A DNA stretch of 64,000 nucleotides from a virus. Lineage: Duplodnaviria; Heunggongvirae; Uroviricota; Caudoviricetes. Shown here piece by piece: positions 27,630 through 28,762 of the stretch. Below the pieces are notes generated by a model. It searched no databases. It saw nothing but the letters and a program-made list of their open reading frames with translations, and was not told the DNA's origin. Numbering within the stretch: the first letter of the stretch is position 1; each line of letters opens with the position of its first letter. The stretch spans positions 32,001-96,000 of the IMG/VR virus record IMGVR_UViG_3300015615_000629; one strand, written 5' to 3'. Both the position numbers and the translations under genes were made by a program.

Positions 27630-28206
27630 AATATCTAAGAATTTGTTTTCCTCTCCGATCAATTTGCTTAAACTTAGTTTTAAAACTAATGGAAGAGATA
27701 CCTCCAAAAAGCCTTGCGTTACTATGAATTTCAGATAAAGACGCTAAAACTAACGTATAGGCGTCTTGTTTCGTCCAAACCTTACACATCGCATCAATTT
27801 CGGCCGACGAACATGTATGTAAACACATGTCCCAGCCGATTAAATCAGAAACAGTTTTGTCTCCTGTAATTTGAAAGTAAAGTTCTTTCGATGCTTCGGC
27901 ATGACCAGGAAAATGGACTTTGCCAAACTCATCTACCGTTTTTACTTTAGGTTTTCCACAGTCGTGGAATCGCAAGTAAGTGGAAATTGTTTCTAAAGAA
28001 TGTAAATTAGAAAGAATTTCCTGCTTATTTGAATTTAACCAATCGGGTAGTTTCCATTCCTTTTTCAACTCGCAATCATCTTTGAGATGGTAATACAAAT
28101 CGAAAAAGTATTCTTCAACGGAAACTCCGTGCTCGTAAACGGATTGTCCTTTAGTTTGTTCGCACATTAACATGTCACGAACGGTTTGGTCAAGCAGCTA
28201 TGTCAT
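27610..28206 (-). CDS. HD-domain protein; proposed start ATG 28206 with in-frame TAG at codon 3 (ORF track starts at 28173)
   Basis: EHG...FHDCGKP...HFPGHAEAS HD motifs; AAGGA-7nt-ATG ACA TAG CTG CTT GAC CAA ACC GTT CGT GAC ATG is in frame. Confidence 0.7.
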
Positions 28207-28552
28207 TTTTAATTCCTTTGTGTTTAAGAAGTTGAAACTTTTTGAAAAATTTACGACGCTCGCCATAAATGGCTTCGGTCGCAATTGCTGTAATTTTATG
28301 TCCGATGTCAGGCTCGAAAAAGCATTTATGCCTGATATCGGACTCAGCCAAATACTGAGAAACTTTATGTAATTTGGCTTCGTCTGTAACTGAGAGGATT
28401 ATTACAGACGGATGATCCCCATGATTGGGAATTAAAGAATGCCTGCCCGCTTCAATGGCAGCATGACAAGACTGAACAGAGATTTGTTCGGGAGATAAAT
28501 CTTTCCGAACAAAAATATAAATGTATCCGTGATCTACCTACGTGTGTTCCAC
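28190..28552 (-). CDS. peptidyl-tRNA hydrolase Pth2-like protein interrupted by in-frame TAG (28538-28540)
   Basis: After the TAG: VDHGYIYIFVRKDLSPEQISVQSCHAAIEAG...VIILSV.DEAKL...FFEPDIGHKITAIA; no ATG/GTG/TTG between the TAG and the domain; missed by the ORF track. Confidence 0.75.
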
Positions 28553-28762
28553 GTCTTCTGTTCCTTTTTGTAAGTCTTCGTTTGTTAACTGATCTAGCCA
28601 GCGGTCGTTTTCTGTTAAATGAATCAAGTTTTCTGTGTAAACTACAACCCAACCTGTAGAACATCCGGCAACCGAGTCTATGTGTATTGCCGGATGTTCT
28701 TTAATCCATTCGTCCAAACAAGAGAAACTTTTCCCTTTTATAAATTCTACTTTTTGAGCCAT
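28538..28762 (-). CDS. hypothetical protein (74 aa), in frame with the Pth2-like domain
   Basis: Its TAG is the same codon that interrupts the Pth2-like frame. Confidence 0.55.
   Translation of the reverse strand: MAQKVEFIKGKSFSCLDEWIKEHPAIHIDSVAGCSTGWVVVYTENLIHLTENDRWLDQLTNEDLQKGTEDVEHT

Follow-up and report, generated by a model that had tools for sequence, protein, structure and literature searches.

A Pth2-like phage gene behind an early in-frame amber codon and its probable gating by a phage suppressor tRNA

Described here is a phage gene for a Pth2-like protein, in which the conserved domain is preceded in frame by an amber codon. The gene lies in a stretch of 64,000 nucleotides (called the window below, always at its full length), i.e., positions 32,001 to 96,000 of the IMG/VR virus record IMGVR_UViG_3300015615_000629 (Caudoviricetes); the record is a single virus genome of 572,167 bp. 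On the minus strand, a Shine-Dalgarno (SD) site, a start codon, and a few sense codons run into the amber, directly behind which the open reading frame (ORF) of the Pth2-like domain begins; the gene of an HD-like protein follows, opening with a leader of the same kind (Table 1). Judging from the comparison with relatives, this is a live Pth2-like gene whose translation is probably gated by the amber suppressor tRNA that the phage itself encodes.

Table 1. Features of the Pth2-like gene, the 74-aa gene, and the HD-like gene, in window coordinates.
Feature	Position	Strand	Remarks
SD site AAGGA	28562..28566	(-)	read directly; 9 nt ahead of GTG 28552
Leader GTG GAA CAC ACG (M-E-H-T), four sense codons ahead of the amber	28541..28552	(-)	read directly
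Putative gating amber TAG, next base G	28538..28540	(-)	also ends the upstream 74-aa gene
Pth2-like domain ORF, 115 codons plus TGA (28192-28190)	28190..28537	(-)
74-aa gene from ATG 28762, same frame as the Pth2-like ORF	28541..28762	(-)	its stop is the amber TAG above
HD gene leader: AAGGA, 7 nt, ATG ACA TAG (28206-28198)	28198..28218	(-)	overlaps the Pth2-like 3' end in another frame
HD-like protein gene	27610..28197	(-)	phrog_14850, E 6e-47; called as 27610-28173

The Pth2-like gene and its HD partner

A reading of the letters made without database searches (the sequence-only reading) had placed 115 open codons with a Pth2-like pattern past the amber; the coordinates proved exact, and a Pth2 fold is predicted for the product by structure modelling. 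The codons directly after the TAG are GTA GAT CAC GGA TAC ATT, and the sense codons of the ORF span 28537-28193. The same reading had stated that no ATG, GTG, or TTG stands ahead of the first conserved strand. Indeed, the earliest of them past the TAG is TTG 28351 (codon 63), which lies well beyond the first strand and also beyond the conserved motif VQSCHA. The two in-frame starts that it had listed upstream of the TAG, GTG 28552 with its AAGGA site and ATG 28762, are both present. The coding score of the Pth2-like ORF is 0.35 (off-frame mean -0.92), and that of the 74-aa ORF opened by ATG 28762 is 0.29; true coding chunks score 0.33 +/- 0.11 and off-frame sequence -0.92. The 74-aa protein has no Pfam or PHROG family match and a single homologue, P0044, which is 70% identical and likewise 74 aa long; the same arrangement is found on contig L241 (684 nt). 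ATG 28762 is the start of a separate conserved gene, the most likely start of the Pth2-like gene being GTG 28552 with its short leader, in line with relatives.

The likeness of the 115-residue product to Pth2 was assessed by profile and by fold. The profile match for which the sequence-only reading had asked is seen with Pfam PTH2 (PF01981), yet at 22.0 bits (E 2e-4) it falls just under the cut-off of 23 bits. PF01981 is precomputed for 21 of the 42 homologues found in a large protein collection, and the family profile matches Pth2 chains of the PDB (24bt, E 1e-6; 2zv3, E 1e-3). The AlphaFold model (pLDDT 89.4, pTM 0.83) retrieved, as its top 15 Foldseek matches in the PDB, Pth2-family chains, characterised enzymes among them, or structural-genomics proteins of that fold, and in addition the protein 2gax of unknown function; all 15 had a probability of 1.0 and TM of 0.55-0.71, and subsequent matches had E > 0.3. 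The Pth2 likeness is, thus, marginal by Pfam and firm by the modelled structure. With archaeal and eukaryotic Pth2 (PF01981; MJ0051, 2zv3; S. solfataricus, 1xty; human Bit1, 1q7s), the window protein has in common its size, the alpha/beta fold, and the pattern R-x-D-L ... Q-x-x-H-A-A and D...T-A-I-A. Unlike Pth2, the phage branch is paired or fused with an HD protein, has suppressor tRNA genes for neighbours, and carries an in-frame stop at its opening.

In the HD-like gene, the N-termini of relatives can be aligned with the residues from its TAG to ATG 28173; the closest relative (L175) starts nine codons ahead of the conserved Met. The protein resembles HD phosphohydrolases and is 43-44% identical to the HD halves of phage HD-Pth2 fusions (alignment A3). 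In XacN1, Xoo-sp13, and CM1, the HD and Pth2-like parts are fused in one ORF opening with ATG AAG (AAG) TAG; fusions are known in both orders, Pth2-HD and HD-Pth2, and those of the opposite order likewise stand behind a leader. Among about 50 stand-alone HD loci, most have a start-plus-TAG leader (e.g., ATG ACG TAG or ATG CCC TAG), and two have ATG-x-TGA. The HD leader is unremarkable when judged by the window genome alone. The fusions and the shared leaders suggest that the two enzymes work together and that both are gated, so the Pth2-like and HD enzymes appear to act as a pair, each behind an early stop.

Early stops and suppressor tRNAs among relatives

In the first 12 related IMG/VR loci (40-49% identical), a TAG stands in frame just ahead of the first strand in 12 of 12 cases, each time led by an SD site, an ATG, and 1-7 sense codons. 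A wider IMG/VR search returned 80 loci, 65 of them non-redundant. A start-plus-stop leader with no canonical start ahead of strand 1 was present in 37 of these 65 (32 with TAG, 4 with TGA, and 1 with TAA), and a leader followed by a later canonical start in 10; an ordinary start was seen in 8, fusion to a longer N-terminus in 7, and no start was found in 3. An early stop equivalent to the window TAG is, thus, kept in 47 of the 65 non-redundant homologues, which was the outcome of the inspection of this site in relatives as suggested by the sequence-only reading; cultured phages and contigs of metagenome-assembled genomes (MAGs) have it too, the stops of the relatives being drawn from GenBank isolates, IMG/VR, ENA, and MAGs. 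ATG-X-TAG is the leader seen most often, and the stop of the family is confined to codons 2-11, not scattered. With the control criterion of a TAG having an ATG 1-8 codons ahead, 17 of 299 control ORFs of the same loci qualified, compared with a start-plus-TAG leader at 38 of the 65 homologous loci; leaders of this pattern are far more frequent than chance would give. Of 47 leaders, 42 have a purine directly after the stop; according to Bossi and to Miller and Albertini, a purine after UAG is said to favour amber suppression in E. coli.

Leaders akin to M-E-H-T of the window include M-N-H-T (L012), M-T-H (LR756511 and Serratia phage BF), and M-T (L008). In cultured phages, the leader reads ATG TCT CAC TAG in fHe-Yen9-04, ATG GCA CAA TAG in CBB and GAP32, ATG ACG CAC TAG in BF, ATG TTG TAG in RsoM2USA, ATG ACT TAG in Acinetobacter phage ME3, and ATG CTG TAG in Salmonella phage Arash. 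A leader with an early stop is found as well in uncultured phages of 595 kb, 462 kb, and 735 kb, and 10 of 10 family members on MAG-binned contigs, mostly of Planctomycetes, open with M-G-F-T-TAG or similar. Some database proteins seem to have ordinary starts: the long forms P0003 and P0024, with Q at the stop site, are translatable only with TAG read as Q, and the short form P0005 is a GTG call four codons past an ATG...TAG leader; none of these three starts is genuine. In GenBank, no CDS is annotated where the match lies in fHe-Yen9-04, BF, the Erwinia pEa_SNUABM phages, and RsoM2USA, and the gene is truncated in the records of CBB, GAP32, and Arash, presumably because an early stop gates it. 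Two loci (L071 and L091) display two in-frame TAGs seven codons apart ahead of the Pth2-like domain; the peptides encoded between the stops resemble each other (..EEYG / ..DDYG), that interval contains no start codon, and a tRNA(CUA) lies about 400 nt upstream.

The closest comparison is afforded by contig L241 (about 80% DNA identity), where the SD site, GTG, GAA CAC ACG, and TAG are all kept. The AAGGA with its flank (CAAAAAGGAACA) is retained there, and sites of the AAGG/GGAG type precede the leader starts of other relatives. The stretch ACGTGGAACACACGTAGGTAGATCACG is identical in the window and in L241, with synonymous sites near saturation elsewhere; the leader lies inside a 27-nt stretch that is invariant between the two, dS being about 1 elsewhere. 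Over all 80 comparable codons past the TAG, dS is 1.02, dN 0.106, and dN/dS 0.10; over the 62 codons ahead of any canonical start, the values are 0.83, 0.117, and 0.14, respectively. The earlier argument that the gene is not decayed, for which dN/dS past the stop had been proposed as a check, is borne out by these figures together with the retention of the TAG.

ARAGORN detected 40 tRNA genes in the phage genome, among them one tRNA(CUA) at genome positions 30802-30894, i.e., 1.1 kb ahead of the first base of the window. It matches the Rfam tRNA model RF00005 with 49.7 bits (gathering score 29); its best similarity is 63%, to tRNA-Leu(GAG), and yields no identity. A tRNA(CUA) was present in 5 of 5 of the cultured phages with a TAG leader that were tested first; in the four RaK2-like enterobacterial phages it is situated about 3 kb from the gene, inside the tRNA cluster, and XacN1 has it in two copies. 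It also accompanies a TAG leader in ME3, Arash, and LR756500. The same anticodon occurs in all of five further large TAG-leader genomes (LR756501 and G010-G013), and at about 20 IMG/VR loci, the tRNA(CUA) gene is at most 1.5 kb away, often abutting the Pth2-like gene. The TGA-leader contigs (G001, G002, G003, G004, and G006) carry tRNA(UCA) in 5 of 5 cases, on two of them as the sole tRNA, and no CUA is among the tRNAs recovered from these five; the single TAA-leader contig (G005) carries tRNA(UUA). No mismatch between the type of stop and the suppressor anticodon was seen in any genome examined. In RaK2, where the gene opens with a canonical ATG, none of the 8 tRNAs is a suppressor. Some tRNAs whose anticodon ARAGORN reads as CTA are entered in GenBank as tRNA-Phe (L235, Salmonella phage Arash) or tRNA-Ser (L239, Mycobacterium phage Myrna), and both of them adjoin the Pth2-like gene.

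Competing readings and a possible mechanism

The proposal of the sequence-only reading, an intact gene reachable only via the amber, agrees with the stop being kept in relatives, with the phage's own tRNA(CUA), and with the co-variation of stop and anticodon; on these comparisons, the gene is probably gated by suppression. Translation might, instead, begin past the stop at a non-canonical codon, e.g., ATT 28522, perhaps by termination-reinitiation after the leader or the 74-aa gene. The Pth2-like ORF abuts a terminating ORF, which favours such coupling, and the starts called for nine database proteins fall in the alignment at ATT 28522. However, at least one of these called 'M' residues is a GTG-coded Val four codons past a TAG leader, and the column of ATT 28522 holds ATT, ATA, ATC, GTT, CTT, CTG, GTG, and TTG in relatives; codons so variable point to a hydrophobic strand residue, not to a start. 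The residues between the stop and this column are conserved with synonymous change, no SD site stands at a usable distance from ATT 28522, and reinitiation gives no cause for the type of stop to track the suppressor anticodon. A non-canonical start past the stop had been named earlier, along with absence of the stop in relatives, as a finding that would speak against the amber; the stop is kept in relatives, and with the aligned codon varying and no start conserved, such initiation is considered improbable. A slim chance is also given to reading of the stop by near-cognate host tRNAs when release factor 1 is scarce or blocked, the leader serving as a sensor of termination capacity. Very early stops after short peptides, as in minigenes, terminate poorly, which counts for this explanation, and the phage encodes an RF2-like protein that might shift the balance of release factors. 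Still, it leaves without explanation both the pairings of TGA with tRNA(UCA), TAA with tRNA(UUA), and TAG with tRNA(CUA), and the frequent adjacency of the tRNA gene.

Far less credible are two further explanations. In one of them, the gene once started at GTG 28552 and has become a pseudogene through a recent CAG-to-TAG mutation or looks like one through an assembly error: a single base change suffices for the stop, and the database relatives have Q in its place. Those Q residues, however, are TAG read under code 15, and the TAG is kept in L241 across dS of about 1, with dN/dS (omega) of 0.10 past it, as well as in dozens of distant relatives; since the figures for L241 reveal purifying selection past the TAG, a pseudogene or an assembly error is regarded as excluded for practical purposes. 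In the other, the whole phage reads TAG as sense (code 15), so the stop at issue would be an ordinary sense codon. The genome does possess what TAG-recoded phages usually carry, a tRNA(CUA) together with an RF2-like gene (Borges et al., 10.1101/2021.08.26.457843). Nevertheless, TAG closes 181 of its 1027 long open frames. It splits same-frame ORF pairs with only a slight excess over TAA or TGA, coding-like segments that lack an early start are found behind TAA and TGA no less often than behind TAG, and the stop of the family is restricted to codons 2-11. Genome-wide tests without a TAG-specific signal imply that the phage is not recoded and, equally, that the leader could not have been called from the window genome alone. 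The window genome uses the standard code, and no whole-genome reassignment of TAG was found in it, which leaves this explanation with hardly any probability. As to the relatives, a proxy of coding coverage on 3-kb loci is too coarse to tell which of them are recoded.

Several points count against gating by the suppressor, or at least narrow it. Within the window genome, SD-start-stop leaders are no commoner for TAG than for TGA or TAA, so the case rests on comparison, and raw counts overstate the number of independent events because many of the loci are interrelated. The tRNA(CUA) of the window genome is atypical: its length is 93 nt, the variable arm is long, C27 and C43 are mismatched, and the discriminator base is C. 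Other members of the family with canonical starts nonetheless adjoin a tRNA(CUA), so the linkage between enzyme and tRNA is broader than gating, and gating is not obligatory. The catalytic site of Pth2, as described for the S. solfataricus enzyme, comprises the Lys of a GK motif and the Asp of a DAG motif. In the HMMER alignments, the phage family differs from Pth2 at both: the position of the GK Lys is occupied by a nearly invariant Gln, and that of DAG by E-P-D, with the Glu invariant and the Asp nearly so. Because of the glutamine at the lysine position, hydrolase activity of the product is not assured.

As for gating by the suppressor, we infer that the tRNA itself reads the stop, and likewise what the enzymes do. 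Ribosomes would start at GTG 28552 via AAGGA and make M-E-H-T; those finishing the in-frame 74-aa gene would also reach the UAG at 28540-28538, and their readthrough would yield a 190-aa fusion as a by-product. In the cell lacking the suppressor, translation would terminate, giving a tiny peptide at negligible cost and no enzyme, whereas charged tRNA(CUA) would insert an amino acid in the unstructured N-terminal tail, so that the 115-residue domain of the Pth2 fold would be made. With the stop placed in such a tail, the identity of the inserted residue would be unimportant, which fits the finding that suppressors differ in tRNA type between phages, being mostly 72-77 nt long and 93 nt in the window genome. 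The HD gene, with its ATG ACA TAG, would be gated likewise, so the enzyme pair would appear only in proportion to suppressor activity. As a guess, the enzymes may act on the 3' end of tRNA, and their role may be, again as a guess, either to clear peptidyl- or aminoacyl-tRNA by-products of suppression or to hold suppression at a set level by feedback.

It is conceivable, with somewhat less than even chances, that the suppressor tRNA, the Pth2-like gene, and the HD gene constitute a mobile 'code-switch' module, spread over large phages, in which the two enzymes are translated solely by way of the module's suppressor and act back on the tRNA or its products. If so, the module would represent a self-limiting (or self-igniting) circuit setting the strength of stop suppression in an infected standard-code cell, the missing target together with the missing controller of the suppressor tRNAs of standard-code phages, and, plausibly, an initial stage on the way to complete reassignment of a stop codon. 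An analogy is offered by the autoregulation of prfB (RF2), likewise a termination-related gene with an early in-frame stop after an SD-like site and an output set by the handling of that stop; feedback in the phage system is a hypothesis. In prfB, a +1 frameshift takes place at CUU UGA, whereas in the window gene, leader and domain share one frame, and a tRNA would have to decode the stop. The leader is also similar to the lambda bar minigene (AUG AUA UGA) in being an SD-led ORF of two to five codons plus a stop. Minigenes are known for peptidyl-tRNA drop-off, which needs Pth. Unlike bar minigenes, the window leader is followed directly and in the same frame by a conserved ORF that lacks a start, and the type of stop tracks the suppressor anticodon.

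To our knowledge, nobody knows the purpose of the suppressor tRNAs that jumbo and huge phages of the standard code often carry. In the XacN1 paper (PMC5852040), readthrough of 18 amber-ended ORFs gave no suppressor target, and in the RsoM2USA and Atu_ph07 papers, the role of suppressor tRNAs was only speculated on. Stop-recoded phages, such as Lak and crAss-like phages (10.1101/2021.08.26.457843), likewise use a phage suppressor tRNA to translate in-frame stops in a standard-code host, with the stop as a post-transcriptional gate and with RF2 accompanying tRNA(CUA), as in the window genome; the preprint by Borges et al. (10.1101/2021.08.26.457843) makes no mention of a hydrolase. The present case differs in that the genome otherwise follows the standard code and a single stop, at codons 2-11, precedes the genes of one pair linked to a tRNA gene. 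In the literature searched, which left most subscription journals outside its coverage, neither a link of suppressor tRNAs with Pth2 or HD genes nor early-stop gating in phages was described. Recurring in dozens of unrelated large phages, the early-stop gene pair looks like the target that has long been missing for the suppressor tRNAs of phages: a concrete and conserved one, linked to the tRNA gene and with an early stop following the anticodon of the tRNA. If the enzymes feed back on suppression, they would provide a circuit of translational control that is new in kind, and engineers of controlled stop-codon suppression would have a natural part at hand. The question is open to direct study in cultured phage-host pairs.

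Surroundings of the locus and other early stops

A palindrome, ACGTG-GAACA-CACGT (window 28541-28556, minus strand), might form a 5-bp hairpin around the GUG, ending at the UAG. Folding of the RNA around the leader gave the ACGUG/CACGU hairpin a z-score of -1.3, which is not significant, and its sequence is identical in L241, hence no covariation is seen. No synteny with the first 12 related loci was found for the window neighbours of the gene (the 74-aa gene, the 195-aa and 295-aa genes, and the ARH-like gene), the 74-aa ORF and the N-terminal extension of P0015 are unrelated, and a search of GenBank phages at the DNA level with the 1.8-kb region gave no match. On the plus strand, at 26037-27629 of the window, a 530-aa ORF includes an extended series of near-perfect repeats of G-N-V-G-G-N-V-T-G-S-V-G-S-V-V-G-A-V-G-S-V-T; it resembles a fibre or adhesin, and Pfam and PHROG searches with it were without a match.

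Early stops have been encountered in two other genes of the genome. An HNH endonuclease gene at genome positions 100534-101185 (minus strand; L271), about 5.2 kb past the end of the window, is preceded by an SD site, ATG GCA GGT TTT GCC, and TAG. This leader, M-A-G-F-A-TAG (genome 101164), closely resembles the M-(A)-G-F-S/T leaders of the Pth2-like genes of other phages. An ATG lies five codons past the stop, and the leader was found in 0 of 8 HNH relatives; as a second amber-gated candidate, the HNH gene is unproven. The release-factor-like (RF2-like) gene mentioned above, at 56248-56970 of the window (minus strand), encodes PCRF and RF-1 domains and is led in frame by AAGGAG, GTG, nine codons, and TGA, the domain beginning directly past the TGA. 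Three of its relatives (55-60% identical) have instead a +1 frameshift site of the prfB kind (CTT TGA G or CTT TAA C), so the window copy seems, by this comparison, to bear an in-frame opal stop in place of the frameshift. A weak tRNA(UCA) is located in the same genome at 286239-286310.

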